DNA of 64,000 nt. Origin: a bacterium. GTDB taxonomy: Bacteria; UBA10199; 2-02-FULL-44-16; JAAZCA01. The position numbers and the translations under genes are program-made. The notes beneath the pieces were generated by a model that searched no databases, was not told the origin of the DNA, and saw nothing but the letters and a program-made list of their open reading frames with translations. The DNA is taken from contig CAXXGI010000001.1 in the NCBI GenBank assembly GCA_963674695.2, positions 576,001 through 640,000 on the forward strand. Reading direction: 5' to 3'. This document shows positions 15,826-64,000 of this stretch, piece after piece; position 1 is the stretch's first letter; each line of letters starts with the position of its first letter.

Positions 15826-15898
15826 CGCCCATCAGGCGAGTGTTGCATTGACCCGCCGCTATCAGCTATCATTGGACTTCGAGCAAAGGGGGGCACCC

Positions 15899-16288
15899 AT
15901 GGGAAACAAGCGCATCCTGGTGGTTGAGGACGAACCGGATCTGGCCGATCTGCTCATCCAATATTTAAAACATGAAGGCTATTCCATCATGGTCGCCCTG
16001 GATGGAAAGGATGGCCTGGAACGCGCCAAGGAAGAGCATCCGGATCTGATCATCACCGACGTGATGATGCCCAAGCTCGATGGCTTTCACCTCTGTCGCC
16101 TGCTCAAGTTCGATGCCAACTTCAAGAATATCCCGATCATCATGCTGACTTCGCGCGGAGAGGGCGAAGCCAAGCAGACGGGCACGAGCGTCGGCGCAGA
16201 TGCCTACCTCACCAAACCATTCGAGAGCGAGGAACTCCTCGCGACGATCCGGAAGCTCCTCGGCGAGGATGAAATCAAGGAAGGATAG
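15899..16288 (+). CDS. Stand-alone response regulator receiver
   Basis: ILVVEDE, IITDVMMPKLDG, IIMLTS, YLTKPF; no output domain. Confidence 0.93.
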   Translation: MGNKRILVVEDEPDLADLLIQYLKHEGYSIMVALDGKDGLERAKEEHPDLIITDVMMPKLDGFHLCRLLKFDANFKNIPIIMLTSRGEGEAKQTGTSVGADAYLTKPFESEELLATIRKLLGEDEIKEG

Positions 16289-16361: not shown

Positions 16362-16459
16362 TGTCATCCCCGCCCCCGATTCAACCATTCGAGGGCAGGC
16401 TCCAGCGGGGATCTCGATGTACCGTATAAAGCGAGATTCCCGCTTTCGCGGGAATGACA
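16362..16459. repeat. REP-like doublet, copy 2, with nested insert in the first hairpin
   Basis: TGTCATCCCCGC[CCCCGATTCAACCATTCGAGGGCAGGCTCCA]GCGGGGATCTCG...CGAGATTCCCGCTTTCGCGGGAATGACA. Confidence 0.85.
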
Positions 16460-20440: not shown

Positions 20441-21430
20441 ATGGAGACCTACATGGACCGCTACCCCAAACCGCAGCTGGTCGTCAGCAAATGCCTCGGA
20501 TTTGCTGACTGTCGTTGGAACGGCATCGCGATTTCCTCAACCGTCGTCGAAAAGCTTGAGCCCTTCGTCACGTTTCATCCGGTCTGCCCGGAAATGGAAA
20601 TCGGTTTGGGTGTACCGCGAAAGCCGATTCGCATCGTACTCAAAAAGGAGCGACGCCTTCTGTTGCAATCGATAAACGAGATGGATGTCACCGAACGCAT
20701 GGAGCGTTTCTGCTCGCAGTTTCTCGACGGCCTCACGGGAAAACCTCTCGACGGCTTCATCCTCAAAGGACGCAGCCCCTCCTGCGGCATCAAGGACGTC
20801 AAACTCTACCCCCGCCTGGGCAAAGTCGCCGCGCTCTCGGGAAAGGCAAAGGGGTTCTTCGGCAGCGCGGTCCTGAAACGCTTTCCGCTGCTGGCCGTCG
20901 AGGATGAGGGGCGGCTGACGAGCTTCCAGATCCGCGAACATTTTCTGACCCAAGTCTTCGCGCTCGCGAGGCTGCGCGAATTTCTCGAACACCCCACGCC
21001 GGCAGGGCTGGTGGAGTTTCAGGCACGTCACAAACTCCTGCTCATGGGATATAACCAATCGAAGATGCGCGAGTTGGGGCGCATCGTTGCCAACCACGAA
21101 CAGCATCCCTTCGATCGCGTCTGTTCGGCTTTTGCCGATGGATTCCGTCTGGCCATCTCCAAGGCGCCGCGCACGAGATCAAACGTGAACGTCCTGATGC
21201 ACGCGCTCGGTCACTTCTCGGAAGGACTCGGAGCCCCCGAGAAAGCGCACTTCCTCGGTGAACTCGAAAGGTTTCGCGCGGGGCATACACCGCTTTCGGT
21301 CCCGATCGGCATTATCCGTTCCTTCATCGCCCGCTTCGGCAACGATTACCTCGCCAAACAATACTATTTCGATCCCTATCCCGAATCACTCGTCGAAATC
21401 ACCGATTCCGGAAAAGGACGCAGCTGGTAG
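20441..21430 (+). CDS. DUF523-DUF1722 fusion (YbgA family; TudS/RudS-like thiouridine desulfidase)
   Basis: VSKCLG..CRWNG, VCPEMEIGLGVPRKPI, FILKGRSPSCG, EDEGRL, FQARHKLLLM, NVLMHALGHFS, YLAKQYYFDPYP. Confidence 0.88.
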   Translation: METYMDRYPKPQLVVSKCLGFADCRWNGIAISSTVVEKLEPFVTFHPVCPEMEIGLGVPRKPIRIVLKKERRLLLQSINEMDVTERMERFCSQFLDGLTGKPLDGFILKGRSPSCGIKDVKLYPRLGKVAALSGKAKGFFGSAVLKRFPLLAVEDEGRLTSFQIREHFLTQVFALARLREFLEHPTPAGLVEFQARHKLLLMGYNQSKMRELGRIVANHEQHPFDRVCSAFADGFRLAISKAPRTRSNVNVLMHALGHFSEGLGAPEKAHFLGELERFRAGHTPLSVPIGIIRSFIARFGNDYLAKQYYFDPYPESLVEITDSGKGRSW

Positions 21431-34682: not shown

Positions 34683-36479
34683 ATGAGGAGATCATTTCCC
34701 CAGATGAATTTCGAAGCCCTGACAGCACGCGCACGCGAGCCGCATTCATCGACGGCCTTCGATCGCCGATCATTCGATCGCACCATTACATCCGTCGCCG
34801 ATGAGAGCGGCATGACCGCGCTGCGGCAGCAGAGCGTCGAAACCGTCGCCGCGGCAAAGGACCTGCTGGGGCTCAACGGATATTGTGCCGAATCCGGAAA
34901 GAATTCCCAGCTGTGCCGACCCATGTTCGGGCAGACGAGCGCCGCCACAATCATTGAAGAAGGCGCGGTCGTGGTCGAAAATATCGCCCTCGCCACCGGC
35001 GTGGCGCTCGTGGCCTGGGGCATGGGCGAGATCCTCGCTGCCGTCGGCGCATGGCTGGCAACGGCATCGACGGTCGAGGCCGGCATCGGCGCCGGAACGG
35101 GAATGATAGCGATCACCGCCGTCGCCTGCGGCGATGCAACCGAACCCTCCGAAGAAGTCATTCCCGATGGCGACATCGACCTGGACTTCCCCCTGCCCGA
35201 CGGCGACCGCGAACACCCCGAGTTTGCCCCCCATACAGACGGCGATGACGATTCCGTCGAGGGAGACGTCGAGATGGATCCCGCACTCTGCGGCAACGGC
35301 GCCATCGATCCGGGCGAGGAGTGCGAATCGAACGAATGGGGGGAATGGATCGGCTGCACCGACTGCCTGCTCGATCCCCAGCTCACCCTGCTCATCTCGC
35401 GCGTCGGCATTCCCGATGCCATCCGACGCGAAGAGGAACGCGCCATCTTTCGCATCGACGATGAGGAATCGCCTGCTATTCTCTGTTCGCTTCCCGAGCG
35501 CGATGCGAGCGGAACCTTTTCTCGCCTCCATCGTTTCGATAGCCGCACGTCGCTGACCACTTCGGTGCTGACCGGATTCTACGGCTCCCCTTGGCGCCAA
35601 GCCGCGGTCGATACCGAGACGAACTGGCTCTTCTACCAGATGCAAGAGTGGCAGGAGACGCGCCCGCGTCTGGTGCATGTTGACGACGGTATCGTCATCC
35701 CGCTGGAAGGGAAAGATGACGTCACGCTCGAAGGAATGGAGCGCGTCTGCGCCTCGCGGGATCTCACGCACCTGGGCGGCATCGCCCTCGTCGACGGCAG
35801 CCCCACCGATCCGGCGCGCACATTCCGGCGCACCTCGCTCAGCGATCTCATGGAGCGCAACGATCCGCCAAACCCCGCAGCGCAGGGCGTTCAGGTATAT
35901 GAAACGCTGCACGGGGAACTCGCCGCGGGCGCACGCGCCACGACCCATTGCATGGACGATAGGGGCAACGCCGCGATCGCCGGCTGGGACAGCGATCGCA
36001 ACGCCATCGGCGCGATCCTGCTCGTCGCGCCCGACAACAGCGTCACGCGCGTCGCACCGGATATCATCGCAAACGCATCAGCTTCGGCACCCGTCATCGC
36101 CCCCGAGGGCACGCTCTGCTTTCTGGCCATGGCAAGCGATGCCACGGAACTGATCTGCACCTCCGCCAACGACCCCGATGCGATCGAACGCAGCCCCGCC
36201 CCGGAGGCCGCGCGGGAGATCATCGGCATCAGCGACGATGGCCGCCAGGTCATCGCGTTCGACGGCGCACGCGCGCTCTCCCTCTTCGACCGCGAGTTAG
36301 GTCGCTGGATCGAACCGGATCTCGGCGGAATCACGCAGGGGGATATCATCGTCGCCGCCGCCGTGGCCGGCCGCTGGCTCTTCGTGCGCTCCGAATACAA
36401 CGACGGCGGTGACATCGCCACCGCCGTCTGGAGAATCTCTCTTGACGAGACGCTTACGGCTGTCCCTGCATCTCGATGA
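34683..36479 (+). CDS. Orphan family A, copy 1: N-terminal extension, hydrophobic segment, myxobacterial-type Cys repeat, probable beta-propeller
   Basis: CGNGAIDPGEECE Cys repeat; paralogous to 44726..46369 (SVET.A..K.LLG..GYC, GQTS.A.I.EE.AV.VEN.ALA, PEFAPHTDGD, G.YG.PWRQ.AV). Confidence 0.75.
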   Translation: MRRSFPQMNFEALTARAREPHSSTAFDRRSFDRTITSVADESGMTALRQQSVETVAAAKDLLGLNGYCAESGKNSQLCRPMFGQTSAATIIEEGAVVVENIALATGVALVAWGMGEILAAVGAWLATASTVEAGIGAGTGMIAITAVACGDATEPSEEVIPDGDIDLDFPLPDGDREHPEFAPHTDGDDDSVEGDVEMDPALCGNGAIDPGEECESNEWGEWIGCTDCLLDPQLTLLISRVGIPDAIRREEERAIFRIDDEESPAILCSLPERDASGTFSRLHRFDSRTSLTTSVLTGFYGSPWRQAAVDTETNWLFYQMQEWQETRPRLVHVDDGIVIPLEGKDDVTLEGMERVCASRDLTHLGGIALVDGSPTDPARTFRRTSLSDLMERNDPPNPAAQGVQVYETLHGELAAGARATTHCMDDRGNAAIAGWDSDRNAIGAILLVAPDNSVTRVAPDIIANASASAPVIAPEGTLCFLAMASDATELICTSANDPDAIERSPAPEAAREIIGISDDGRQVIAFDGARALSLFDRELGRWIEPDLGGITQGDIIVAAAVAGRWLFVRSEYNDGGDIATAVWRISLDETLTAVPASR

Positions 36480-48279: not shown

Positions 48280-51200
48280 ATGACCAAGACACGCATCGCC
48301 CTCATCCTCACCCTCATCCTGATGATTTTCCTGGCCCTTCCCGAAAGCGCCTTCGCTGCCGATGGCGATGGCGACGGGTGGCAGGATGCCGCGGAAATCC
48401 TCTGCGGCACCGATGAAACCAATGTCGCCGACATGCCGACCGATACCGACGGTGATGGCGTTTGCGACGTCCTGGAAGATTCCGACCTCGACGGCGATGG
48501 GTTCTCCGCCGGCGTCGAAATGCTGTGCGGATCGGATCCGGCCGATGCGGGCGATGTGCCGACCGATACCGATGGCGATGGCGACTGCGACACGATCGAC
48601 GCCGATCGCGACGGCGATGGCTGGTACGATGCGATCGAAGACGGCTGCGGCACCGACCCGGCCGATGCGGGCGATGTGCCGACCGATACCGACGGCGATT
48701 CGATCTGCGACGCGATGGAAGTCTCCGACCGCGATGGCGACGGCGTCGTCGATGCGATCGAAACGCTCTGCGGTTCGAATCCGGCCGATGCCGGTTCGAT
48801 CCCGACCGACACCGATGCCGACGGCGACTGCGATGCCATCGACGCCGACCGCGACGGCGATGCGTGGGCCAATACGATGGAGACCGCTTGCGGCACCGAT
48901 GCGGACAACGCCGCCGACGTGCCGACCGACACTGACGGTGACAACGTCTGCGATGCGATGGAAGACGGCGACACCGACGGCGATGGGGTGGAAAACGCGG
49001 TCGAGACCGTCTGCGGGTCGGACCCCGCCAATGCGGCATCAACCCCGACCGACACCGATGGTGACGGCGACTGCGACGCGATCGACGATGACGACGATGC
49101 CGATGGATGGATCGACGCGCTCGAGACAGCCTGCGGAAACGATCCTGTCGATGCAGGGGACATACCGACCGACACGGATACCGACGGCATCTGCGACCTG
49201 ATGGAGACGGCCGATCTCGACGGCGACACCTATGCCAACGCGCATGAAACGCTGTGTAACTCCAACCCAAGCGATGCGGGGTCAACGCCGCCGGACACGG
49301 ACGGCGACGGCACCTGCGATGCGATCGACCCCGACATCGATGCGGACGGCTGGATCAACGAACTGGAGACGCTCTGCGCGACGGATCCGAGCGACAACGC
49401 CTCGATCCCGGTCGACACCGACGGCGATGGCCTCTGCGATGCGATGGAGACGGCCGACATCGACGGCGACGGTTTTGAAAATGCGATCGAGACGATGTGC
49501 GGATCCGACCCGGCCGATGCGGGTTCGACGCCGGCCGATGCGGATGGCGACGGCACCTGCGATACGCTCGACGCCGACACCGACGGCGATGGCTTCGGCA
49601 ACGACATCGAGACCGTCTGTGATTCCGATCCCAATGATGCGGGCGACACCCCGACCGACACCGATGGCGATGGCACCTGCGATGCCCTCGAAGATGACGA
49701 CCTCGACGGCGACGGTTTTGCCTCGGCCATCGAAGCGCTCTGCGGATCCGACCCCGCCGATGCGGGCGACACCCCTGCGGATGCCGATGGCGACGGCGAC
49801 TGCGATGCCATCGATGCCGACATCGACGGCGACACCTGGGCGAACACGATGGAAACCGCTTGCGGCACCGATCCGAACAACGCCGCCGACGTGCCGACCG
49901 ACACCGATGGCGATCTGATCTGCGATGCGATGGAGCAGGATGACATCGACGGCGACGGCGTGGCCAATGTCATCGAGGATCTCTGCGACTCGGATCCGGC
50001 CGACGCGGGTTCGACGCCGACCGACAGCGATGCCGACGGCACCTGCGACACGCTCGACGCCGACCGCGATGGCGACGGGTGGAGCAATGCTATCGAAGCC
50101 CCCTGCGGCACGAGTGCGGACAACGCCGCGGACATCCCGCTCGACCTGGACGCCGACGGCGTCTGTGACGCGATGGAGGATGCTGATACCGACGGCGACG
50201 GCTCCACCGACGCCGAAGAAAACCTGTGTGGATCAGATGCGAACAACGCGGCCGTTACGCCCATCGATGCCGCACACGACGCGGACGGCGATGGAACGTG
50301 CGACGCCCTCGACGCCGATCGCGATGGCGACGGCTGGGACGACACGATCGAGACCGGCTGCGGCACCGACCCCGCCGATGGAGCGGACGTCCCCGCCGAC
50401 ACCGACGGCGATCTGATCTGCGATGCGATGGAGGTCGCCGACATCGATGGCGACGGATTCTCCAATGCCTTGGAAACCATCTGCGGATCCTCCACGACCG
50501 ACGCGTTGGAAACGCCCACGGACATCACGCGCGACATCGACGGCGACGGCACCTGTAACGAACTCGACGCCGACCGCGATGGCGACGGATGGGACGACAC
50601 GATCGAAGCTCCCTGTGGCACCGACCCGGCCGACGGAGGCGACACGCCTGCCGACACCGACGGCGATTCGATCTGCGACGCGATGGAGATCGCCGACACC
50701 GACGGCGACGGATTCTCCAACACCTTAGAGACGATCTGCGGATCCTCCACGACCGTTGCCGGGCAGACGCCGATCGATGCCACGCGCGACATCGACAGCG
50801 ACGGCACCTGTAATGCCCTGGACAACGATCAGGATGGCGACGGCTGGATCAACGATATCGAAACCCTCTGCGGATTCGACGCGGCCGATGCCGCCTCGAT
50901 TCCGGCCGATGTGGATGGCAACGGCATCTGCGATGCCCTGCAGGATCCGGCTCGTCCGGTGATCACCGCACTCACGATCGACGGCGTTGCGGGCCCCGCC
51001 ACCAAGGATGAAGGCACGGTGGTCACCTTGGGCGTCACCGCCAGCGATCCGCTGAACGACACGCTCACCTATCTCTATACGCGCGTGAGCGGACCGGCCG
51101 TCGTTTTGCCGGGCGGCGATGGAACCAATACCCTCGCCGTCACGCTTCCGAGCGTGGCCGGTGACGAACAGCTTATCATCCGCGTGGCCGTTCAGAATGA

Positions 51201-53775
51201 ACGCGGGCTCATCTCTCTCCCCGAGACGGCGACGATCACCGTGAATGCCATCAACCAGGCGCCCGTCGCGCGCATCGGCGGCAACTTCACCGTCGGCGAA
51301 CAGGAGGATATCTTCCTCTCGGGAGCGGAAAGCTCTGATGCGGACGGCAATGCGCTCACCTACGCCTGGGTGCTCACCGATAACGGCGGCGGCACCTGCA
51401 ACTTGACCGTCGCGAATCAGATGGAGACGCGCGTGACAACGAATATCGTCAACGCCGCGACGAACTGCACGATTCAACTGGTCGTCAACGACGGCATCAC
51501 CAATTCAGTCGCAGCCATCGAAACGCTCACGGTCCTCAACACCGACAATACCGAGCCGGAGGTGACGACCGTGCGCCTGACCGACACCGGTGGCGGGGAC
51601 ACGACCTACAACCTCCCAGCCTCTATCGGCCCCTATGCGATGAACGAAAACGAAACGCTCACGATTGCGGTGACCGCCACCGACGACGATGGCGATCCGC
51701 TGGTCTATCGCTATACGCAGATCGCGGGGGCGAGCCTCAACCTCCCTGCGGAGGATGACGATTCCGTCGATGTGGGCATCCCCGAGATTGCCGGCATCGC
51801 GAATGACACGATCGTCATCCGCATCGACGTCGATGATGATCAGGGCGGCACGAGCACGCCGGTCTTCGCGATCATCACCGCCGCACAGGTGGATCGCGCA
51901 CCGGTGGCGAACGCCGGCCCCGATCACGCGGCCAACGAGGGCGACCTGGTGACGCTCGATGGAACGGAGAGTGCCGACCCGGACACCGACGCCCTCACGC
52001 TCACCTGGGAGCAGATCGACGCCAACCCGGCGCTGCCGGAATTTGTCGCCGGCGGCGGCACACTCGTCGGCATGCGCGTGCAATTCACCGCACCGAGCAC
52101 GCTCACCGCGGATACGACCTACAGCTTCCGCGTGACTGCTGATGACGGCCGCGGACAAACCGCAACCGATGATGTCGACGTCATCGTGCGCAACAGCCAG
52201 AACGCTGTGCCGACGATCGTGCTCGGCGATCAGACCGTCGATGAAGGCGACATCGTCACCGTCACCGCGATAGTGACCGAACCCGACACGATCGGAGGTG
52301 GGAACGAACAGCAGGTCCACACCTCCACCTGGATGCAGACCGGCGGTCCAGACGTCGATATCACCGTCAACGGGGTCGATCAGGACGAGTTCAGCTTCGA
52401 TGCCCCGACCGTGAATGCACAGACCGACTTCACTTTCCGCCTGATGGTCTCCGATGGTCGTGGCGGAGTCGCGATGGGCACTGCGGTGATCACGGTGCGC
52501 AACAACGTCAACGAAGCGCCGGTGGCAAAGGCGGGCGTGGATCGCACGGTCTCCGAGCAGACCACCGTCGTCCTCGACGGCACGCGTTCGTATGATGACA
52601 ACGATCCGAATAAAGAGAATCTCACCTTCGCGTGGACGCAGACGGCCGGAACCGCGGTGACGATCGATGCGGCCAACGCTCAGGTCGCCACCTTCGTCTC
52701 GCCGAAGGTCGTCGAGGCGGGCCAGACGCTCACCTTCGAACTCACCGTCAGCGACAACGACGCCACCGATCCGAAGACAGCGACCGATACGGTGACGATC
52801 ACGATCACCAACGACGTGAATGAAATGCCCACCGTCGACGCCGGCGACGACGTCATCACCGGCGAGGGTCAGGCCGTCACGCTCACCGCGGTCGGCACCG
52901 ATGAGAACGAGGCCGATGACTCAACGCTCACCTATTCCTGGGTGCAGATATCCGGAACGACGGTGACGCTCGAGGATGCCGATACGGCCGCGATGAGTTT
53001 CACCACGCCCACGGGAGAGCGCAACACGACGCTCGTCTTCGCGGTCACCGTCACCGATCCGGAGGGCGACTCGGCAACCGACACGATCACCGTCGATGTG
53101 CGCGATCTGTTTCTGTCGTGCGCACAGACCGAGATCATCGCCGCGAACGGCGAGGAGGTGACCATCGAGTGCACCGCCCAGACGGGTGAGGATGCAGCGG
53201 CTATCTTCTATGAGATCGTCGCGATCAATGGCCAGAGCACAGGCGGAGTGGCGCGTGCAGCCGAAGAGGAGTACATCACACCGGTGGAATTCTCCGTCGC
53301 CACCGATCCGACGGCGCCGATGTTCGACCTCACCGCGCCGGCAACAATCGATTTCTCCGCAGCGGCCGCGCCATCATCACAAACCTACAACGTGGCCCTT
53401 CCCTCGCAGGACTTCGAGATCACGCTCGCGATCGGAGAGAATCAGCAGACGACCTACGAGGCGCGGCAGACCTGGATCCGCACCGCCGTGCTGCCGACGA
53501 TCGATTCGCTCGACGGCATACGCTACACGATCCGCGCAACGGCTGTGAGCCAATACGGCAGCGAGGATGCCGCCGACGTGGTCATCACCACCGAGCCCCC
53601 CTTCTCTATCGGCGGAGGCGGTGGCCGTGGCATGTTTGGTCTGGGTATGATGGGATGCCAGCTCAACGCCCGCGCGAACGAACACCCCAGCCGCAATTCG
53701 TTCATCGCGTTCCTGTTCCTCCTCATGAGCACGTTCGGCGCCATCCTCATCTTCCGCCGCGCACGGTCGCAGTGA
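48280..53775 (+). CDS. Large surface protein: signal peptide, 21 Ca-binding DxDxDG/Cys repeats, PKD/cadherin-like Ig domains, MYXO-CTERM-like anchor
   Basis: AFA signal cleavage site; repeats DxDGDGxxxxxExxCGxDPxDAxxxPxDTDGDGxCD; NxAPVAxAGxD..LDG..S.D domains; GGGG..GC, TM helix, RRARSQ at the C-terminus. Confidence 0.9.
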   Translation: MTKTRIALILTLILMIFLALPESAFAADGDGDGWQDAAEILCGTDETNVADMPTDTDGDGVCDVLEDSDLDGDGFSAGVEMLCGSDPADAGDVPTDTDGDGDCDTIDADRDGDGWYDAIEDGCGTDPADAGDVPTDTDGDSICDAMEVSDRDGDGVVDAIETLCGSNPADAGSIPTDTDADGDCDAIDADRDGDAWANTMETACGTDADNAADVPTDTDGDNVCDAMEDGDTDGDGVENAVETVCGSDPANAASTPTDTDGDGDCDAIDDDDDADGWIDALETACGNDPVDAGDIPTDTDTDGICDLMETADLDGDTYANAHETLCNSNPSDAGSTPPDTDGDGTCDAIDPDIDADGWINELETLCATDPSDNASIPVDTDGDGLCDAMETADIDGDGFENAIETMCGSDPADAGSTPADADGDGTCDTLDADTDGDGFGNDIETVCDSDPNDAGDTPTDTDGDGTCDALEDDDLDGDGFASAIEALCGSDPADAGDTPADADGDGDCDAIDADIDGDTWANTMETACGTDPNNAADVPTDTDGDLICDAMEQDDIDGDGVANVIEDLCDSDPADAGSTPTDSDADGTCDTLDADRDGDGWSNAIEAPCGTSADNAADIPLDLDADGVCDAMEDADTDGDGSTDAEENLCGSDANNAAVTPIDAAHDADGDGTCDALDADRDGDGWDDTIETGCGTDPADGADVPADTDGDLICDAMEVADIDGDGFSNALETICGSSTTDALETPTDITRDIDGDGTCNELDADRDGDGWDDTIEAPCGTDPADGGDTPADTDGDSICDAMEIADTDGDGFSNTLETICGSSTTVAGQTPIDATRDIDSDGTCNALDNDQDGDGWINDIETLCGFDAADAASIPADVDGNGICDALQDPARPVITALTIDGVAGPATKDEGTVVTLGVTASDPLNDTLTYLYTRVSGPAVVLPGGDGTNTLAVTLPSVAGDEQLIIRVAVQNERGLISLPETATITVNAINQAPVARIGGNFTVGEQEDIFLSGAESSDADGNALTYAWVLTDNGGGTCNLTVANQMETRVTTNIVNAATNCTIQLVVNDGITNSVAAIETLTVLNTDNTEPEVTTVRLTDTGGGDTTYNLPASIGPYAMNENETLTIAVTATDDDGDPLVYRYTQIAGASLNLPAEDDDSVDVGIPEIAGIANDTIVIRIDVDDDQGGTSTPVFAIITAAQVDRAPVANAGPDHAANEGDLVTLDGTESADPDTDALTLTWEQIDANPALPEFVAGGGTLVGMRVQFTAPSTLTADTTYSFRVTADDGRGQTATDDVDVIVRNSQNAVPTIVLGDQTVDEGDIVTVTAIVTEPDTIGGGNEQQVHTSTWMQTGGPDVDITVNGVDQDEFSFDAPTVNAQTDFTFRLMVSDGRGGVAMGTAVITVRNNVNEAPVAKAGVDRTVSEQTTVVLDGTRSYDDNDPNKENLTFAWTQTAGTAVTIDAANAQVATFVSPKVVEAGQTLTFELTVSDNDATDPKTATDTVTITITNDVNEMPTVDAGDDVITGEGQAVTLTAVGTDENEADDSTLTYSWVQISGTTVTLEDADTAAMSFTTPTGERNTTLVFAVTVTDPEGDSATDTITVDVRDLFLSCAQTEIIAANGEEVTIECTAQTGEDAAAIFYEIVAINGQSTGGVARAAEEEYITPVEFSVATDPTAPMFDLTAPATIDFSAAAAPSSQTYNVALPSQDFEITLAIGENQQTTYEARQTWIRTAVLPTIDSLDGIRYTIRATAVSQYGSEDAADVVITTEPPFSIGGGGGRGMFGLGMMGCQLNARANEHPSRNSFIAFLFLLMSTFGAILIFRRARSQ

Positions 53776-56205: not shown

Positions 56206-56221
56206 AGTTTGTCGTTTTTGA

Positions 56222-56292
56222 TGTCATTCCCGAGGAATCGGGAATCTCGACGTACGTGAAAAATCGAGATTCCCGATTCCTCGGGAATGACA
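56222..56292. repeat. REP-like doublet
   Basis: TGTCATTCCCGAGGAATCGGGAATCTCGA...TCGAGATTCCCGATTCCTCGGGAATGACA. Confidence 0.85.
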
Positions 56293-56307
56293 AAAAAAGG
56301 ATAAAAG

Positions 56308-58149
56308 CTAAGGATGTGCAGGCAAGGCGCAAATCTGTCGTTCGTCGTCGTAGTAAGGATCGCCGAAGACGGGGCCGATGGGTTCATCGATGTGGATGGT
56401 GAATTTGGCCAGCCCCCCGGATTCGCCTTCGGGATTCTCGCCGTAGGGACCGATCGGGATCGCGCCACCATCCATGCGCGCCAACTGCGGCATCGAATCC
56501 CGGTACGGCTCCGGGTTCCAGAAACAGTCGGTCAGCATCTGCGCGATCACGATCCCTCCGACAACGAAGGCGAGCTTGGTGCCCACGGTGATCGCCGCAC
56601 CCGGAACGATGAATGGGCCACCGATGATGAGAACCAGAGCTGCACCGACACCGATGAGCGCGACGGTTCCATATTTCCACTGCTCTTCACGTGAATAGGG
56701 GATGATTTTGTCCTCTTTATCGACACGCTTCACCGTATATCCGACAACGGCATCGCTCAGCTGGTTCAAATTATGGCGCAGCATAAAGCCACCCCCAGCA
56801 GTATTGAACACCATGGCCACCGCCATGATCGGCACCGGCGGCAACTTCGCTCCGATGAGCGCGATATCGGTGGCCATGATGACGCTGCCGCCACGACGGG
56901 CCATCTCGGCTGCAGATGCAAAAAACCAATAGGCGTGCTGTATCAATCGGAAGGCATTGTCGCCGATGTCGACGCAGGCATCGCCGAGGGCAAAGACATC
57001 ATAATTCTCGGGATCGTTCTTATAGTTGTCGATCTCGCGGTCGATCTTGACCACACTGGCCGCGATCCCCGCGCCGTAGGCGAGCTGCGAAAAAACCTTT
57101 CCCCACCGCGCCAGCTTCAATGCCTTCTCCTGCAGGCGCCAATACTTGCTCGCCTCCTTGCCATGCACCTTTTCAAACGCGGCAAGGGCCTTTGCCCCTC
57201 CCTCACGCGCCTCGCGAAAGGCGTGATAGGTCTTGATGTCGGAAACATTCTTCGCCGCGCCGTTGCCCAAGGCCTTGAGGATGTCGCCCGCCGCGCGCTG
57301 CACCGCCCCTGCACCACCGTTGAACTTCTGGACGCCGACGAAGATCGTGGAGGTCCCCGTATCCGAACCGATCATCGCCCAGGTCTTGCCATCGCATCCT
57401 TCATCGGAGGCCAGACACACGCCCCCCGCGACCATGTTGCCCGCGATGCGCATGTAGTTGGCGCGGTTGAACCACTTGCCCGCATCCTTGCCCATCGCAC
57501 CGCCGGCCGCGCGGACCTCGTTGCGATGCTCGCGCAGCTGGGCCTGGCTCTTTCCCCGCAGCTCTTTGGGCATGAAGACGCGGTCGTAGGCCTTGCCCAC
57601 CCTGGTGTCGCTGTCGAAGATGCGCGAGAGCGTCGACGTCTTGGTGAAGATCGGCTGGTTCGGATTGTCGAGGTATTGAAATTTGTTCCCCCGCCCGAAG
57701 CGCTGGCCATAGGAATACATCCCGCGGGTGAAGGCCATGCGCCAGGCCGCCTTGCCGGACTTGTGGATGCCGTAGGCGAACTCGCTGTTGATCTTTTCCT
57801 CTTCCTTGGCCGAATCGAAGATCGTCCCGTCCGGATTGCGGATGGGTGAGAGCTCTTCGGTCATCGGCCCGGGAAGGGTCGAGAGGAGATTGTTCTCGAT
57901 CCCCTGAAAGAAGGCGTCGAGCTGCACCTCGCTCGCGGCCATGATCTGGATCGAACCGGATGCAGGGTCGAAGAAGGCGCCCGCACCGCCGGGGATGTCG
58001 ACCGCCTCATCGGTGATCGTGATCGTAACAGGGGTTTCCGGCGTGAAGGGACCGAACGCCGCGCTCAGCGGCGCCATGGCCGGCGCCATCGCGAACGGAT
58101 CTTGGCTCACTTCGGGAAGAGCATGTGTGGATTCGATCCGATCGCCCAT
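56308..58149 (-). CDS. Hypothetical protein with several Gly/Ala-rich hydrophobic segments
   Basis: AAGGGGAG RBS; no signal peptide; C-terminal hydrophobic hairpin YGTVALIGVGAALVLIIGGPFIVPGAAITVGTKLAFVVGGIVIA. Confidence 0.7.
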   Translation of the reverse strand: MGDRIESTHALPEVSQDPFAMAPAMAPLSAAFGPFTPETPVTITITDEAVDIPGGAGAFFDPASGSIQIMAASEVQLDAFFQGIENNLLSTLPGPMTEELSPIRNPDGTIFDSAKEEEKINSEFAYGIHKSGKAAWRMAFTRGMYSYGQRFGRGNKFQYLDNPNQPIFTKTSTLSRIFDSDTRVGKAYDRVFMPKELRGKSQAQLREHRNEVRAAGGAMGKDAGKWFNRANYMRIAGNMVAGGVCLASDEGCDGKTWAMIGSDTGTSTIFVGVQKFNGGAGAVQRAAGDILKALGNGAAKNVSDIKTYHAFREAREGGAKALAAFEKVHGKEASKYWRLQEKALKLARWGKVFSQLAYGAGIAASVVKIDREIDNYKNDPENYDVFALGDACVDIGDNAFRLIQHAYWFFASAAEMARRGGSVIMATDIALIGAKLPPVPIMAVAMVFNTAGGGFMLRHNLNQLSDAVVGYTVKRVDKEDKIIPYSREEQWKYGTVALIGVGAALVLIIGGPFIVPGAAITVGTKLAFVVGGIVIAQMLTDCFWNPEPYRDSMPQLARMDGGAIPIGPYGENPEGESGGLAKFTIHIDEPIGPVFGDPYYDDERQICALPAHP

Positions 58150-58179: not shown

Positions 58180-58749
58180 TTACGGCGCGGGAATCGCGGA
58201 CGATCCCCCATCGAGCACCTCCCAGACCGCCGGCGTCGTGGAGTGGGAGACCTTGCAGTCTTCCGCATTGGTATAGAGCGCGGCCGAATCGATGATGTGA
58301 TCTCGATCGGCGCTGAGCCCGCCGACGACTTCCTTCAGAAATGACTGATGCTGCGCGGCTACATCGGCGTCATTCGCGATACAACCCAGTCCCACAATCA
58401 TCATGTCGATAACGACATTGGCCGAGCAGAAAGTCCACTCGCTCCCATCCGCCTTCTTCGCCGTCATGCTCCAGAGTTTGGTCGCATTGTCATAGATCAG
58501 CACCGTGCGCCCGCCGTCGAAGAGACCGATGTCCACTTCACTATCGACCGCAATCTCCAGGCGATAACCGGAAGACGTCGCCTGCCCCTCGATGTCGAAG
58601 CTGTCGACGAAGAGGTCGTTTCTGCCGCAGGCAGCCGTCACACACTTTTCGTTGTGCCCGCTCTCGCAGCGATCGACCGGCTCAAAATCGACGCCGCTAT
58701 AATTCAGGGAAAAGGACTCCGGAAACCTGCTCATTTCCATATCCGACAT
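58180..58749 (-). CDS. Hypothetical acidic protein
   Basis: AAGGAGG RBS; ends 30 nt before the start of 56308..58149, so probably co-transcribed. Confidence 0.6.
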   Translation of the reverse strand: MSDMEMSRFPESFSLNYSGVDFEPVDRCESGHNEKCVTAACGRNDLFVDSFDIEGQATSSGYRLEIAVDSEVDIGLFDGGRTVLIYDNATKLWSMTAKKADGSEWTFCSANVVIDMMIVGLGCIANDADVAAQHQSFLKEVVGGLSADRDHIIDSAALYTNAEDCKVSHSTTPAVWEVLDGGSSAIPAP

Positions 58750-58893
58750 AACCGCCTCCTTGGACGTGTGGGCGCCGGTTTGCGCCGTTTGCGGAGGGGG
58801 GGTACCATAGGTTGCGTCGGATAATCAAGTGGAGAATTGCCAAAATTGAACTGTCACCGCCGTGGGAAGCGATCTTGCAACCTACTGATAATA

Positions 58894-59901
58894 CTACATA
58901 TTATTGACAACCGAACCGTCCTCGATCGGGAAAAAGGCCTCGATATGGGCCTGTATCTGAGCGGGCGTGGTCGCTGTGTGGAGATCGCGCAGGAAAAGCT
59001 TCACGCCGGGAATCCCCTTGGCATACCAGGGAAGCATCTGGCGCATCTGCAGGACGGCGTAGTGTTCGCCGAGAAAGTCGATCAACAGGTTCATATGACG
59101 CAGCGCCATCGCGCCGCGCTCGGCGAGCGTCGGCGGCGCGGCATCCGGATCGAGGATCTGCTGGAAGATCCAGGGATTGCCCACCGCCGCGCGACCGATC
59201 ATGACGCCGTCGCAAGCGGTCTCCTGCATCAGGCGCAGCGCATCGGCGCGCGAACGAACATCGCCGTTGCCGATCACCGGGATGGAGAGTGCCGTCTTGA
59301 CGGCGGCGATGACCGACCAGTCGGCCGTGCCGGAAAAACCCTGCATGCGGGTGCGGCCATGCACCGCGACCGCATCGGCCCCCTCCTCCTGCGCGATGCG
59401 CGCGATCAGGGCGGCGTTGATCGAATCCGCATCCCATCCGGAACGGATCTTCACCATCAGCGGAAGCCTGGTCGCCGCGCGCACCGCCGCGACGATGGCG
59501 CGCACGAGATCCGGCGTCTTCATCAGCGCCGCGCCCGCCCCCTTCTTGCAGACCTTCGGCACGGGGCACCCCATGTTGATGTCGATACAGTCGATCGGTT
59601 CATCCGCGATGATTCTCGCCGCCTCGGCGATCGCCGCCGCCTCGTTCCCAAAGAGCTGTACGCCAAAGGGGCGCACCGCTGCATCGTTGGAAAAATAGCG
59701 CCGCGTTCGCTCCTGCGCCTGCAAGACCCCCTTGGCCGCGACCATCTCCGAGATCGCCAGGGCACAGCCCTGCTCCATCGCGAGCAGACGATACGGAAGG
59801 GAGGAGAGCCCCGCCAGGGGTGCCGCAATCAGGTTGTTGCGCAATTGAAGCGAGCCGATGGCGATCGAGGGAAAATCGCATTGTTCGGATGTCGATGACA
59901 T
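58894..59901 (-). CDS. dusB: tRNA-dihydrouridine synthase DusB
   Basis: AAPLAG, SEMV, QLFG, IDINMGCPVPKV..GAGAALM, VKIRSGWD, HGRTR.Q, GNGDV, MIGRAA.GNPWIF. Confidence 0.95.
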   Translation of the reverse strand: MSSTSEQCDFPSIAIGSLQLRNNLIAAPLAGLSSLPYRLLAMEQGCALAISEMVAAKGVLQAQERTRRYFSNDAAVRPFGVQLFGNEAAAIAEAARIIADEPIDCIDINMGCPVPKVCKKGAGAALMKTPDLVRAIVAAVRAATRLPLMVKIRSGWDADSINAALIARIAQEEGADAVAVHGRTRMQGFSGTADWSVIAAVKTALSIPVIGNGDVRSRADALRLMQETACDGVMIGRAAVGNPWIFQQILDPDAAPPTLAERGAMALRHMNLLIDFLGEHYAVLQMRQMLPWYAKGIPGVKLFLRDLHTATTPAQIQAHIEAFFPIEDGSVVNNM

Positions 59902-59909
59902 GGCGTTTC

Positions 59910-60052
59910 CTATAGAGTTCCTGTCCAGAAAAGGGCTTTTGTTGTCATTCCCGCGAAGGCGGGAATCCCGAAGCACTTGAAAAATCGAGATTCCCGCCTT
60001 CGCGGGAATGACAAAAATCGGAAAAATCGCCTTTTCCGAGCAGGAACTATAG
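59910..60052. mobile_element. REP doublet enclosed by imperfect outer inverted repeats (REPIN/MITE-like)
   Basis: CTATAGAGTTCCTGTCCAGAAAAGG...[REP doublet 59943-60013]...CCTTTTCCGAGCAGGAACTATAG. Confidence 0.7.
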
Positions 60053-60109
60053 GAGATGCGGACGCGAGGCGCAACCCCGAGCAAATTCAACGCATGTTTC
60101 TTGAAAGCG

Positions 60110-60250
60110 TGGCCTTCCCGCCAGCTCTCCGAGCGGCTTCTTCGAGCGCCGCCTTCACAAGCCTCCAATCCCGCGGCGCGAAGAAGAGCAGGCGACGAGC
60201 CGGCGTTTGAGGCGAGGAGCCGTAAGCGAGGAGAGCTGGCGGGAAGGCCA
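60110..60250. repeat. Element with 21-bp perfect inverted repeats
   Basis: TGGCCTTCCCGCCAGCTCTCC ... GGAGAGCTGGCGGGAAGGCCA, 99-nt core, between maf and dusB. Confidence 0.65.
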
Positions 60251-60265
60251 TGCCGTACGACGACT

Positions 60266-60850
60266 TCACGCAGAAGCTGCGCGAAGCATGCGCAGGAGGG
60301 TGGGGATCGAGATGCCGATGACGTTGGTGAAGCAGCCGCGCACCTCATCGATGAGCGCCGCGCCCTTGCCCTGAATGGCATAGGCGCCGGCGCGCCCCTT
60401 CCATTCGCCGGTGGCGAGATACCAATCGATCATGCCGTCATCGAGCGAGGAAAAACGCACCGTCGTCGCGGTCACCTCGACATCGATCGTAGCCGAAGCG
60501 ATATCGCGCAGGGCGATGGCGCTGGCGACCTGATGCTCGCAACCGGAGAGGCGTTTCAGGATGGCGCGCGCATCCTCGCGGTCGCGCGGTTTACCGATGA
60601 TGGCGCCATCGATCCCGATGGCGGTGTCGACGGCGATGATGACCGCATCGAGCGCGGGCGGCACGATCGCCTCGGCCTTCTGACGTGCCAGTCGCTCGAC
60701 ATAGGCGGCAACCTTCTCGTCATCCTGCGGCGATTCATCGATAGAGGCGACATCGGGAATGAAAGAAAAGCCCGCCTCGGCCACGAGCCGTCGTCGTGCC
60801 GGAGAAGCGGTGGCAAGGACCAAGGGACGCGTGAAAGGAATGATGGCCAT
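60266..60850 (-). CDS. maf: Maf family nucleoside triphosphate pyrophosphatase
   Basis: LATASPARR, IDES, LARQKA, DT...DG.IIGKP, LSG.EH.V, AGAYAIQG, G.F.NVIG. Confidence 0.92.
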   Translation of the reverse strand: MAIIPFTRPLVLATASPARRRLVAEAGFSFIPDVASIDESPQDDEKVAAYVERLARQKAEAIVPPALDAVIIAVDTAIGIDGAIIGKPRDREDARAILKRLSGCEHQVASAIALRDIASATIDVEVTATTVRFSSLDDGMIDWYLATGEWKGRAGAYAIQGKGAALIDEVRGCFTNVIGISIPTLLRMLRAASA

Positions 60851-60973
60851 GGGCGCACCATGCCGCGAGCGCGGAGGAAACGCAAGATGCTCAAGGAGTT
60901 CGTTTTTATTGTCGTTTCGACCTGTTCGCGCTACACTGCATATGGTTCACGGTTCACGGTTCACGGAGGATCT

Positions 60974-61195
60974 ATGTCTCATGAAATCGACGCGAAGGGG
61001 CTGCGCTGCCCTCGCCCCATCATCGAACTGGCAAAAGCCAAGCGCACGCTGCCCAAGGGCGAAGAAATCCACATCATCGCCGACGATCCCGCCTTCGACA
61101 GCGACGTCCGCGCCTGGTGCGACACCACCGGATGCACCATCGTCTCGCTCGAGAAAGAGGGCGACGTCGTCACCGCTGTCATCACGCTGAAGTGA
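60974..61195 (+). CDS. tusA: TusA/SirA family sulfur carrier
   Basis: IDAKGLRCPRPI (CPxP), IIADDPAF..DV.AWC; GGAGG RBS. Confidence 0.92.
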   Translation: MSHEIDAKGLRCPRPIIELAKAKRTLPKGEEIHIIADDPAFDSDVRAWCDTTGCTIVSLEKEGDVVTAVITLK

Positions 61196-61205
61196 AAGGC
61201 CCTCC

Positions 61206-61751
61206 ATGACCTCGGTCGACACCACATCGCTCGAATCGCGACTCGCCGCAGTGGAAGAGCGCCTAAAAAAATGCTCTCCCTCAAAACGCTCGGTGAGCAT
61301 CGTCTGCTTCTCGGGCGAATTCGACCGGCTCTACGCCGCCTTCACCATCGCCGTGGGCGCGGCCAGCATGGATGCACGCGTACGGATGTTCTTCACCTTC
61401 TGGGGCTCGCAAGCGATGTGCCCCGTCATCGGCACCTGGAAACCCAATACCCTCCTGCAACGCCTCTTCGGGTGGGTGATGCCCCACGGCATCAAGAGCC
61501 TGCCGCTTTCACGCATGAACTTCTGGGGACTGGGCCCGTGGCTGATGCGCCGCATGATGAACAAGAAGGGCATCGAGAGCCTTGAAACGCTCATTCAGAG
61601 CACGCGTGAGATGGGCGTTGAGTTCCGTCTCTGCGACACCTCCGCCGATATGCTCGGGCTGTCCACCTGTGCGGGGGGTGAAACCAGCAGCTGCGGGGTC
61701 GCCACCTTCGTCACCGACGCCATGAGCGACGACCTCGTCCTCTTCATCTGA
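61206..61751 (+). CDS. DsrE/DsrF/DrsH-like (DrsE_2) protein
   Basis: SIVCFSGEFDR, MFFTFWG, LSRMNFWGLG..MMNKKG..SLE.LI, GV...LCDTSADMLGL, GVATF, LFI. Confidence 0.88.
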   Translation: MTSVDTTSLESRLAAVEERLKKCSPSKRSVSIVCFSGEFDRLYAAFTIAVGAASMDARVRMFFTFWGSQAMCPVIGTWKPNTLLQRLFGWVMPHGIKSLPLSRMNFWGLGPWLMRRMMNKKGIESLETLIQSTREMGVEFRLCDTSADMLGLSTCAGGETSSCGVATFVTDAMSDDLVLFI

Positions 61752-61771
61752 CACCGAAAAAGGAGATCGCC

Positions 61772-62161
61772 ATGACTGCCACAAACGACCGCCTGCTCAT
61801 CATCCTCAGCACGGGCAAACAGGACCACGGCGCCAAAGCCACGCTCGCGTTTGCATTCGCCTGTTCGGCCCTCTCCATGGGATCAGAGGTGGCACTCTAT
61901 GTCACGATGGATGGCACGATCTGGGGCCTCAAGGAATCGACGCGCGGAATCCAACTTCCTGGATTCGACTCGTTGGAAACCTATGTCGAACAATTCGAGG
62001 AACTCGGCGGAAAGATCTTCGTCTGTCCGCCCTGCATGGAGTACTACTGCAGCATCAGCGAAGACGATGCGAAGAAGGGCATGCGCGACGGGGCGAAGAT
62101 CACCGGCATGGCGACGGCCTATCACTTCATCTCGGACCACGGTCGCGTCGTGACGTTCTGA
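61772..62161 (+). CDS. DsrE family protein
   Basis: KATLAF..A.SA, LYVTMDG, F.ELGGKIFVCPPC, G.A. Confidence 0.85.
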   Translation: MTATNDRLLIILSTGKQDHGAKATLAFAFACSALSMGSEVALYVTMDGTIWGLKESTRGIQLPGFDSLETYVEQFEELGGKIFVCPPCMEYYCSISEDDAKKGMRDGAKITGMATAYHFISDHGRVVTF

Positions 62162-62195
62162 CGAAACAACCGTTTTCCAGGAGAAGCCTTTTTCC

Positions 62196-63191
62196 ATGGA
62201 TACGAACGAACGACTCCAACAAGACGTGAAAGAACTGAAACGCCGCATCACGGAAATGGCCACCACCAATGCCCATGCGGCGGAGATCGTGGCCGAGCTC
62301 GAACAGAGCAAGGCCAAGATCCAGACGCTCAACGAACGGATGGCACAGACCACCGCCGAGGGCGCGGAACTCCTGGCGGAGATCGAGCAGAAGAACAAGG
62401 AGCTCGCCCGCGCCGCGGCCATGGGCGCGGAACTCACCGCAGAAGTCGAACTCCAGCAGGAACAGCTCGAGCAGCAAAACGAACGCCTCCAAGAACTCAA
62501 CGATGAGAAAAATCGGTTTCTTGGAATCGCCGCGCACGACATCCGCAACGGCATCGCCATCATCGACATGCAGACCGACTTGGTCCTCAAGATCTATAAA
62601 GATCTGGAGCCAAAAGCGATTGAAGCCCTCACCAAGGTGCGCAAGCACTGCAAGACGCTGACCAGTCTCGTCAACGATACACTCGACGTCTCGCGCATCG
62701 ACGAGGGGAAGATGGATCCAAATTTTCGGGAAGAGTCGCTGGCCGCACTCGCCATGGAAATCGCCGAGCTCTTTCGCATCGCGGCTGAGAGTAAAGGACA
62801 GACATTTATTACCGATATCCCGAAGGATCTGCCCCCCGTCCTGATGGACCACGGGATGATCGGTCAGGTCATCAGCAACTTCATCTCGAACGCCATCAAG
62901 TTTACGCCCGCGGATGGGCGCATCACCGTGCGCACGGGGCAAAAAGACGACCAGCTCTTCGTCGCCGTGAGCGACACGGGTCCGGGACTGACGGAAGAAG
63001 ATCTGCGGATGGCCTTCGGTACCTTCTGCAAACTCTCGGCGCAACCGACGGCCGGAGAAAAGAGTCATGGCCTGGGATTGGCGATCACCAAGAAACTCAT
63101 CACGATTCACAACGGCACCATCGGCGCCGAGAACAACGCCGACGGCGGCGCCACCTTTCAGTTCTCCATCCCGCTGAAGCAACCGGGGTGA
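62196..63191 (+). CDS. Cytoplasmic histidine kinase with repetitive coiled-coil N-terminus and no recognisable sensor domain
   Basis: H-box AAHDIRN, N-box NFISNAIKFT, G1 DTGPG, F-box, G2 GLGLAI; three AxxAE(I/L)xAE(L/I/V)E repeats; no TM. Confidence 0.9.
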   Translation: MDTNERLQQDVKELKRRITEMATTNAHAAEIVAELEQSKAKIQTLNERMAQTTAEGAELLAEIEQKNKELARAAAMGAELTAEVELQQEQLEQQNERLQELNDEKNRFLGIAAHDIRNGIAIIDMQTDLVLKIYKDLEPKAIEALTKVRKHCKTLTSLVNDTLDVSRIDEGKMDPNFREESLAALAMEIAELFRIAAESKGQTFITDIPKDLPPVLMDHGMIGQVISNFISNAIKFTPADGRITVRTGQKDDQLFVAVSDTGPGLTEEDLRMAFGTFCKLSAQPTAGEKSHGLGLAITKKLITIHNGTIGAENNADGGATFQFSIPLKQPG

Positions 63192-63226
63192 AGGGCTCTC
63201 CCTCTCAAACGGAAACAGGCGTCATC

Positions 63227-63625
63227 CTACAGGACCTTGCGCGGAGGGGGTGCACCTGTGGGGCCGGGCAGATGCTTCCGGATGAGCTTGAGCAGCTGAT
63301 CTTGATCGATCGGTTTTTCCAGATAGGCCGCCGCCCCCAAACCCTGCATCATCCGCTCACCGCGATCCGAGGCGATCGCCGTCACCACGATGATGGGAAT
63401 ATCCCAAAACGCGGCGTCGGCCTTGAGCGTTCGGCAAAACTGATAGCCGTCCATGGTCGGCATCATGATGTCGAGGAGGATCAGATCGGGCTTCTCATAG
63501 CGCATCTGCTTGATGGCCTCATCCCCATCCTTGGCCGTGGAGACCTCGAACCCCTTGAATCGGAGATAGTCCTGCATCAACTCCAAATAGGTCGGTTCAT
63601 CGTCGATGATCAGGATGCGCGTCAT
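63227..63625 (-). CDS. Stand-alone response regulator receiver
   Basis: ILIIDDE, LLDIMMPTMDG, IVVTA, YLEKP. Confidence 0.92.
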   Translation of the reverse strand: MTRILIIDDEPTYLELMQDYLRFKGFEVSTAKDGDEAIKQMRYEKPDLILLDIMMPTMDGYQFCRTLKADAAFWDIPIIVVTAIASDRGERMMQGLGAAAYLEKPIDQDQLLKLIRKHLPGPTGAPPPRKVL

Positions 63626-63791
63626 GTGCCGTCCCCCCGTTGCTGTGGCCTGCCTCACGTCGTTATTCCCCTTCTGAAAAAAATATCAACCCCTTCTTCA
63701 GTTTATCGAAGCAGGCGTGGCCGGAAACGGCAAAATACTTGATTTTGCACGCGTTTGCCCCTACATTCGGCACACACACAAGGAGAAGAAA

Positions 63792-64000
63792 ATGACACTC
63801 AAAGCCGCGATATTCGACCTGGACGGCGTAGTCGTCGACACGGTCCCCATTCACTTCAAGGCATGGAAGCGCATGTTCAATGAATACGGCGTCGACTTTT
63901 CCTTCGATGACTACAAACAAAAGGTCGATGGCATCCCGCGCATGGATGGAGCGCGGGCGGTGCTCACCGATCTCGATCAGGAGGAGTTGGAAGAAGCAGC
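63792..64000 (+). CDS. Beta-phosphoglucomutase-like HAD hydrolase (runs off the window)
   Basis: MTLKAAIFDLDGVVVDTVPIHFKAWK...DGIPRMDG; AGGAG RBS. Confidence 0.85.
   Translation, partial: MTLKAAIFDLDGVVVDTVPIHFKAWKRMFNEYGVDFSFDDYKQKVDGIPRMDGARAVLTDLDQEELEEA

Follow-up and report, generated by a model that had tools for sequence, protein, structure and literature searches.

We have analyzed a predicted operon in which three sulfur-carrier proteins of the TusA and DsrE types are encoded next to a soluble histidine kinase. It lies in a 64,000-nucleotide (nt) stretch of contig CAXXGI010000001.1, from a bacterium of the UBA10199 lineage (positions 576,001 to 640,000 of that contig). We call this whole stretch the window, and all coordinates are counted from its first nucleotide. 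The four genes are co-oriented on the plus strand: tusA (60974-61195, 73 amino acids, aa), a gene for a DsrE2B-like protein of the Pfam family DrsE_2 (61206-61751, 181 aa), a gene for a DsrE3A-like protein (61772-62161, 129 aa), and a gene for a HisKA-type kinase with HisKA and HATPase_c domains (62196-63191, 331 aa). The spacers between them are 10, 20 and 34 nt. An initial annotation, made by reading the sequence alone, had pointed out this arrangement with the same gaps, a CPxP motif in TusA, a CPPC motif in the DsrE protein, and a lone receiver converging on the kinase, and all of this is borne out by the open reading frames (ORFs), their translations and the Pfam matches.

The receiver is on the minus strand, at 63227-63625 if translation starts at an ATG (132 aa) or at 63227-63658 if it starts at a GTG (143 aa), and 35 nt separate its stop codon from that of the kinase. 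It matches Response_reg with 99.6 bits and has no output domain. Its best NCBIfam models are a PleD-type receiver and a DVU0259/DivK-like one (85.9 bits vs. 160), with all matches below their cut-offs. A second receiver-only response regulator is found far from the operon, at 15848-16285 (Response_reg, 104.7 bits), directly after a gene with a PPDK_N domain (14059-15825).

The carrier proteins are assigned to their families with different degrees of resolution. TusA matches PF01206 with 73.3 bits (cut-off 28.6, E-value 1.4e-20), and its CPxP motif, here Cys-Pro-Arg-Pro, has the N-terminal cysteine by which TusA is defined in the available text of PMC11094781, which also covers the classification of the DsrE family and its trimer or hexamer behavior. 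The score of this TusA against the NCBIfam equivalog for the E. coli-type protein is 48.3 bits, below the cut-off of 78. The DrsE_2 protein matches PF13686 with 109.6 bits (cut-off 25), and a sequence search of the PDB finds 3pnx (E-value 8e-18) and 2qs7 (E-value 5.3e-11). The NCBIfam DsrE2 equivalog NF047629 gives it 41 bits for a cut-off of 210, so that it is DsrE2-like, yet outside that equivalog. The cysteine in its active-site position, Cys143, is invariant in all 12 aligned homologues. This protein and many of its homologues start with a short amphipathic helix, L-E-x-R-x-A-x-L-E (window positions 61206-61270), which is missing from the aligned solved structures of the DsrE2B type.

The DsrE3A-like protein is the rarest of the three. 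It matches PF02635 with 44.7 bits (cut-off 22.7), no NCBIfam model matches it, and its only match in a PDB sequence search is 3mc3, with an E-value of 0.029. An AlphaFold2 model (predicted local distance difference test, pLDDT, 73.9) also has 3mc3 as its top Foldseek match (TM 0.75/0.79, E-value 2.2e-7, identity 19%), followed by 2qs7. According to the portions of PMC4175335 available, these two structures are DsrE3A (SSO1125) and DsrE2B of S. solfataricus, respectively. Cys85 and Cys93 of the window protein align exactly onto both cysteines of 3mc3, which are 8 residues apart, and all four cysteines Cys31, Cys85, Cys88 and Cys93 are invariant (7 of 7 sequences), Cys85-Pro-Pro-Cys88 being the CPPC motif at residues 85-88. 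Among 10 word-sharing candidates in a collection of 5.8 billion proteins, only six homologues other than the protein itself passed, and we take it by sequence to belong to a very rare subfamily. A tblastn search against plasmids reports only Paracoccus homologues, with 31-33% identity. In the one Paracoccus record inspected, the neighbors of the homologue are tusA and a cysteine desulfurase, and the annotation of the surrounding 5 kb lists no kinase. Look-ups in the ESM Atlas gave only generic DsrE clusters and unnamed coiled-coil clusters. As far as the family assignments go, the trio looks like a TusA, DsrE2B-like and DsrE3A-like relay, which is a known set.

The kinase has a conserved catalytic core and no recognizable sensor. 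HisKA covers residues 105-171 (34.6 bits) and HATPase_c residues 221-328 (85.4 bits), and the phospho-acceptor His114 in an H-D-I-R-N motif, the N-box and the G-boxes are invariant among homologues. On the N-terminal side, no Pfam family reaches its cut-off in residues 1-104, and a PAS domain is not found in residues 1-115 even at E-values up to 1. The highest 19-residue hydropathy of the protein is only 1.02, so a transmembrane segment is not expected. In the AlphaFold2 model a single unbroken helix runs from residue 2 to 133, through His114, and is followed by a DHp helix (139-169) and by the catalytic domain. The nearest solved kinases are 7z8n, 6paj (SrrB) and 6lgq (KdpD).

The four genes are predicted to form one operon, flanked by the divergent maf gene on the left (60266-60850, minus strand; Pfam Maf, 168 bits) and by the convergent receiver gene on the right. 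A consensus scan of 60200-64000 finds six terminator-like sites, every one on the minus strand and none on the plus strand, and it does not find any promoter-like site. By eye, there is a weak sigma-70-like pair, TTGTCG (60909-14) and TACACT (60932-37) spaced by 17 nt, which has 8 of 12 matches and is below the threshold of the scan. The 51 nt across the 34-nt spacer before the kinase fold no better than their shuffles (z = -0.66). Directly 5′ of the tusA ribosome-binding site GGAGG (60965-69), the heptamer GGTTCAC occurs three times in tandem (60944-60964, plus strand). The 14-nt double heptamer is confined to this site in the 64-kb window, with 2 overlapping matches vs. 0.34 expected, and 5 of 100 shuffles also reach 2 matches. 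These heptamers are a possible operator or leader element. A search of 58500-64000 with Rfam reports nothing below an E-value of 0.1, and no riboswitch is apparent there.

Apparent linkage of kinase and carriers in other lineages

If the kinase belongs with the carriers, related kinases should be found close to related carriers in other genomes. We inferred co-location from homologues whose longest contigs have identical size and identical source. The searches reported 212 matches for the DrsE_2 protein, of which the best 120 were listed, and the best 120 were listed for the kinase. The closest non-self kinases are P0002 and P0003 (one lineage), P0004, P0005 and P0006, with 45-48% identity in the table of matches. 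P0128 is a cluster mate of P0004.

All four of these nearest kinase lineages have a contig of the same size and source as the closest homologues of the DsrE3A-like protein, of the DrsE_2 protein, or of both. Kinase P0005 shares a 9,397-nt NCBI contig, the single contig for each, with the DsrE3A-like P0122 (74% identity) and the DrsE_2 protein P0132 (65%). Kinase P0002 shares a longest contig of 91,715 nt with the DsrE3A-like P0127 and the DrsE_2 protein P0131. Kinase P0006 shares an 8,207-nt Logan contig with the DsrE3A-like P0125 (56%), with no DrsE_2 protein among the matches listed; and kinase P0128 shares a 15,907-nt NCBI contig with the DrsE_2 protein P0130 (59%), with no DsrE3A-like protein among those listed.

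How many such coincidences should be expected by chance? We estimated the chance rate from near-misses, that is, contigs with sizes within 100 nt of each other. For the DsrE list, 3 exact coincidences are observed and 0.035 are expected. For the DrsE_2 list, about 0.85 are expected overall, nearly all of them on contigs shorter than 3 kb; at 8 kb or longer the expectation is about 0.05, and 4 are observed, all of them at 9 kb or longer. As a control for kinases in general, we took 80 kinase loci with at most 38% identity, from at least 599 stretches matching the generic N-box N[LFI][IL]SNA[IV]K[YF]. In none of these 80 unrelated loci (1.3 Mb in total) is a homologue of TusA, DsrE or DrsE_2 encoded within 10 kb of the kinase.

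The five lineages, window included, have mutual identities of only 46-51% for the kinase, 54-74% for DsrE and 57-65% for DrsE_2, and thus they are not near-duplicates of each other. The kinase clade of the window and its carrier clades appear, on these indirect yet statistically strong coincidences, to travel together. Since the same genes seem to occur together also in four uncultured bacteria that are distant from this one, the role of the kinase is probably to report on sulfur status. The system is rare, with five lineages, all of them uncultured. The link between the kinase and the sulfur genes that the initial annotation had drawn thus gains from the short gaps, from the lack of a plus-strand terminator and from the contig coincidences in four lineages; the docking mechanism that came with it does not, as the repeats described below indicate.

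The fourth DrsE_2 coincidence, at 32,943 nt, is of another kind. It pairs a distant DrsE_2 protein (P0142, 42% identity) with the hybrid kinase P0050, which has the architecture REC-coiled coil-HisKA-HATPase-REC, 41% identity over the core, and no repeat. The association of kinase and DrsE_2 protein may extend beyond the repeat-bearing clade.

The 28-residue repeat

The initial annotation had noticed three repeats in the N-terminal coiled coil of the kinase, and these are real. A profile of 28 residues, built from 23 homologue units, matches residues 15-42, 44-70 and 65-91 with 43.1, 40.2 and 36.2 bits (62238-62468, plus strand, for the three copies together), with the third copy at an offset of 21 residues. 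There is no long repeat at the DNA level in 62238-62468, so the copies must be old and diverged. Kinase homologues carry two to four copies, possibly five, and the profile matches 12 of the 120 kinase homologues listed, plus P0128. On the 80 background kinase loci, the only match above the 8-bit print threshold is a fragment with 10.5 bits in locus L039. The kinases P0002 and P0003 are otherwise near-identical and have 409 vs. 381 aa, exactly one 28-residue repeat apart, which indicates that copy number shifts on short evolutionary time scales.

To see how far the repeat extends, we compared kinase residues 1-105 using HMMER with 1.84 billion representative proteins, and obtained 56 proteins with E-values of 0.001 or less. 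Of these, 54 were new, and in 52 of these at least one repeat unit scores 15 bits or higher. Taken together, 157 units in 65 proteins give the consensus x-L-N-x-x-L-A-x-A-N-A-x-A-A-E-L-M-A-E-[LI]-E-x-K-N-E-E-[LI]. Most positions are 80-96% conserved, including Asn3 (96%), Asn10 (90%), Glu15 (93%) and Leu16 (94%). When read in heptads, each unit has asparagine at three of the four 'a' positions, which suggests that the core of the coiled coil is polar and probably metastable.

The proteins that carry the repeat have many different outputs. Using Pfam matches with E-values of 1e-6 or less, 37 of the 54 new proteins have HisKA and/or HATPase_c, others among them with receiver or Hpt domains, and in nine of the 37 the repeats are followed by PAS domains; three of these nine are multi-PAS hybrid kinases with 1,461-1,825 residues. 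The remaining proteins are GGDEF diguanylate cyclases (4), PAS-only fragments (2), one protein with only a coiled-coil match below the cut-off, and 10 proteins without any Pfam match. In all 65 repeat-bearing proteins the units are within approximately the first 200 residues, and there is no hydrophobic segment that looks like a membrane helix. None of the 54 has a fused TusA, DsrE, DrsE_2 or rhodanese domain by Pfam. Two repeat-bearing proteins, the GGDEF protein P0256 and the kinase P0268, agree in the size of their longest contig (26,202 nt), in their sources and in the number of contigs (6). This hints that genes for repeat proteins may occur together, and their products could pair through the repeat.

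The initial annotation had proposed that the DsrE complex docks on the repeats, and that the repeat profile could be used to look for co-occurrence with tusA and dsrE and with other outputs. Other outputs are indeed found (GGDEF, PAS and hybrid kinases). Beyond the closest clade no co-occurrence is seen: none of 20 distant repeat-bearing proteins is on a contig of the same size as a listed DsrE or DrsE_2 homologue, a weak negative given that the DsrE lists are short. Nor do the matches listed include a DsrE or DrsE_2 protein with the contig size of P0008, a repeat-bearing kinase whose contig has 27.6 kb. A repeat found across varied kinases and cyclases, with 0 of 20 sharing DsrE contigs, is not a DsrE-specific docking site, and the docking proposal is left unsupported. 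What the distribution suggests instead is a general N-terminal module of at least 65 soluble signaling proteins. A literature search on the 28-residue repeat in kinases did not find any description of it. As a conserved and unnamed module of many cytoplasmic signaling proteins, it is of interest by itself.

Readings of the operon

We have described two associations, one of the kinase clade with its carriers, and the other of the repeat with soluble signaling proteins at large. What could the carriers be telling the kinase? The reading that we put forward, as plausible while short of probable, is that the relay of TusA, DsrE2B-like and DsrE3A-like proteins is functionally coupled to the soluble, sensor-less kinase. 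Conserved cysteines of TusA and of both DsrE-type proteins would bear the sulfane sulfur or thiosulfonate, as in the Metallosphaera set. The DsrE3A-like protein would convey its loading or redox state to the kinase dimer by protein-protein contact, and this contact would alter either autophosphorylation or the phosphatase activity that acts on a single-domain receiver, for which the convergent one is a plausible candidate. We infer that the DsrE3A-like protein is the messenger, as it is the rarest carrier, its gene adjoins that of the kinase, and it has four invariant cysteines.

The contact could be made at the repeat stalk, at the DHp bundle or at the catalytic domain, and of these the repeats are the least supported choice; we rate docking on the repeats specifically as much less likely than functional coupling as such. 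In the structural model the helix is continuous from residue 2 past His114, so that a disturbance of the stalk or the DHp bundle by a partner could be passed on to the catalytic core. A prediction of the complex between two copies of kinase residues 1-175 and the DsrE3A-like protein, for this one pairing and without controls, gave no answer (score 0.00, mark 0.32) and speaks neither for binding nor against it. With four soluble proteins and a receiver, the system is small and therefore directly testable in vitro.

A more specific reading, which we regard as unlikely on present evidence, joins two proposals. In it, the DsrE3A-like CPPC protein would be a detachable receptor, either receiving sulfane sulfur or thiosulfonate from TusA and the DsrE2B-like protein or holding a labile metal or Fe-S center on its four cysteines, which switches the sensor-less kinase; this would be the first two-component persulfide sensor in which a sulfur carrier acts as co-sensor. 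The second proposal is that the repeat would serve as a general adaptor or input module, so far undescribed, by which kinases and cyclases receive partners or pair with each other.

Several observations weigh against coupling. Two of the five informative DsrE3A-like homologues, P0123 on a 204-kb contig and P0126 on a 58-kb contig, have neither a kinase nor a DrsE_2 protein with a matching contig among the matches listed (a further one, P0124, is on a 1,875-nt contig that is too short to inform). Contig size and source do not make gene order and distance visible. The genes sqr, pdo, hdr, sox and dsr are not recognized in a Pfam scan of the 53 other ORFs of the window. The generic nature of the repeat and the variable Cys152 column, discussed below, weigh on the same side, as does a receiver that has no output domain.

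One alternative, somewhat less likely to us than functional coupling, is that the proteins are co-expressed as parts of one physiological program without sensing together. The carriers would only traffic sulfur, while the kinase would read some other cytoplasmic cue through its repeat stalk: a partner common to repeat proteins, hetero-oligomerization with other repeat proteins, or a physical variable. A strongly conserved generic repeat, present in 65 soluble proteins with varied outputs, argues for a function independent of DsrE, as does the result that none of the 20 other repeat-bearing proteins has the contig size of a listed DsrE or DrsE_2 homologue; and the contig size and sources that P0268 shares with P0256 hint that repeat proteins cooperate. 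What co-expression leaves unexplained is why, in five lineages, precisely these rare DsrE clades should accompany this one kinase clade. Moreover, a receiver without a DNA-binding domain makes the pair an unlikely candidate for a simple transcriptional regulator of the operon. It could also be that the adjacency is a lineage-specific leftover, a synteny inherited without any functional coupling. That just five lineages are known, all uncultured, that two of the five informative DsrE3A-like homologues have no matching kinase among the matches listed, and that gene order is hidden in the other lineages would all fit this explanation. On the other hand, kinase identity between lineages is only 46-51%, a divergence that neutral gene order rarely outlasts, and 0 of 80 generic kinase loci have such a neighbor. 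We consider a mere leftover quite unlikely.

Finally, the kinase could itself be the sulfur acceptor, with TusA or a DsrE protein persulfidating or oxidizing one of its cysteines, Cys152 of the DHp helix or Cys278 close to the ATP lid. Kinases with redox-regulated thiol switches are known (RegB, ArcB, SrrB), and among the five DsrE-linked kinase lineages four have Cys152 and three have Cys278. However, the linked kinase P0005 has neither cysteine. Across the repeat-bearing kinases the residue aligned with Cys152 is Ser, Ala, Gly or Cys in 40 of 48 and Cys in 9 of 48, and three kinases without any indication of DsrE linkage also have a cysteine there. A column that alternates between these residues is probably a packing position and not a dedicated sulfur acceptor. 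Given the variable column, the linked kinase that does without the cysteine and the three unlinked ones that have it, we downgraded the DHp cysteine as a dedicated acceptor, and this explanation is the most improbable of those considered here.

The wider window and known systems

Elsewhere in the window, the only other sulfur-related gene recognized by Pfam is one of the 2-thiouracil desulfurase family (PF04463 and DUF1722) at 20441-21430, some 40 kb away from the operon. An intergenic palindrome with a length of about 90 nt has full copies at 56216-56305 and 59937-60026, which are 82% identical and have compensatory changes in the inner stem. Its arms are also found at 6972-7042, 16362-16459 and 35098-35166, and an 11-mer of the arm occurs 15 times vs. 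1.75 expected. By sequence it looks like an element of the repetitive extragenic palindromic (REP) or miniature inverted-repeat transposable element (MITE) type, and its translation yields spurious ORFs with a high content of Pro, Gly, Arg, Asn and Asp. A protein of 1,831 aa with PKD, Big_9 and TSP3 repeats is encoded at 48280-53775, and two ORFs without a Pfam match, 56308-58149 (613 aa) and 58180-58749 (189 aa), lie between a TonB-like gene and dus.

The carriers of the operon are closest to an archaeal set. In the available text of PMC4175335, dsrE3A, dsrE2B and tusA are side by side in Metallosphaera cuprina and in Saccharolobus solfataricus, so that the same three protein types are adjacent there as in the window, with the gene order in the window reversed. 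The M. cuprina DsrE3A is described as a homotrimer in which Cys93 and Cys101 each accept thiosulfate from tetrathionate and hand it on to Cys18 of TusA; DsrE3A and TusA bind each other, and DsrE2B is unreactive with all compounds tested (PMC4175335). Genes of the Hdr-like and dihydrolipoamide dehydrogenase types flank the archaeal cluster, whereas in the window it is a kinase that follows. Hdr-like or dihydrolipoamide dehydrogenase genes, linkage to which is a criterion for DsrE3A, are not recognized among the neighbors of the operon or in the 53 other ORFs of the window. In comparison with the archaeal DsrE3A, the window protein carries Cys31 and Cys88 as additional invariant cysteines.

For the kinase, the closest likeness is a cluster of Bacillus licheniformis, yrkD-yrkE(DsrE)-yrkF-yrkH-yrkI(TusA)-yrkJ-ydfQ-nreB-nreC-sqr-pdo, in which a kinase and a response regulator are also inside a DsrE/TusA cluster. 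According to the portions of PMC9918477 available, the CstR-like YrkD answers to sulfane sulfur, while NreBC answers to sulfide and switches on the sulfide oxidation genes. NreB senses by means of a PAS domain with a three-cysteine [2Fe-2S] cluster (PMC13478379, likewise in part). The window kinase, in contrast, has neither a PAS nor any other sensor domain, and its N-terminal region is one long helix; and unlike the DNA-binding regulator NreC, the window receiver does not have an output domain. The statement of the initial annotation that described persulfide sensors are one-component holds for persulfide as such, and it overlooks this sulfide-responsive kinase within a DsrE/TusA cluster. Another difference is that no sqr, pdo or CstR-like gene is recognized near the window operon.

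SqrR and BigR are one-component persulfide sensors, DNA-binding repressors that are modified directly. CstR, as described in the same portions of PMC9918477, shares the signal proposed here, sulfane sulfur on conserved cysteines; it too is a directly modified DNA-binding repressor, whereas the window has no such regulator and the proposed readout is phosphorylation. Two-component systems for the thiosulfate and tetrathionate pathways of Acidithiobacillus are described in the available text of PMC5093147. The literature searched (DsrE, TusA and histidine kinase; persulfide two-component systems) gave no description of a sensor-less kinase in a TusA/DsrE operon.

Kinases controlled by an accessory protein are known: KipI or Sda with KinA, PII with NtrB, BceAB with BceS. 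No sulfur-carrier protein is known to act as an accessory input to a kinase. The concept proposed for the window, in which a kinase lacking a ligand site of its own takes its input from a detachable protein, is that of NreA-NreB (PMC9918477, in its available portions), with the binding in the window only proposed. If the coupling is true, the operon would represent a third logic beside the one-component persulfide repressors and the PAS/Fe-S kinase NreB, one in which the proteins that traffic sulfur double as its sensor, and proteins of the DsrE2B and DsrE3A types would gain a role outside dissimilatory sulfur oxidation.

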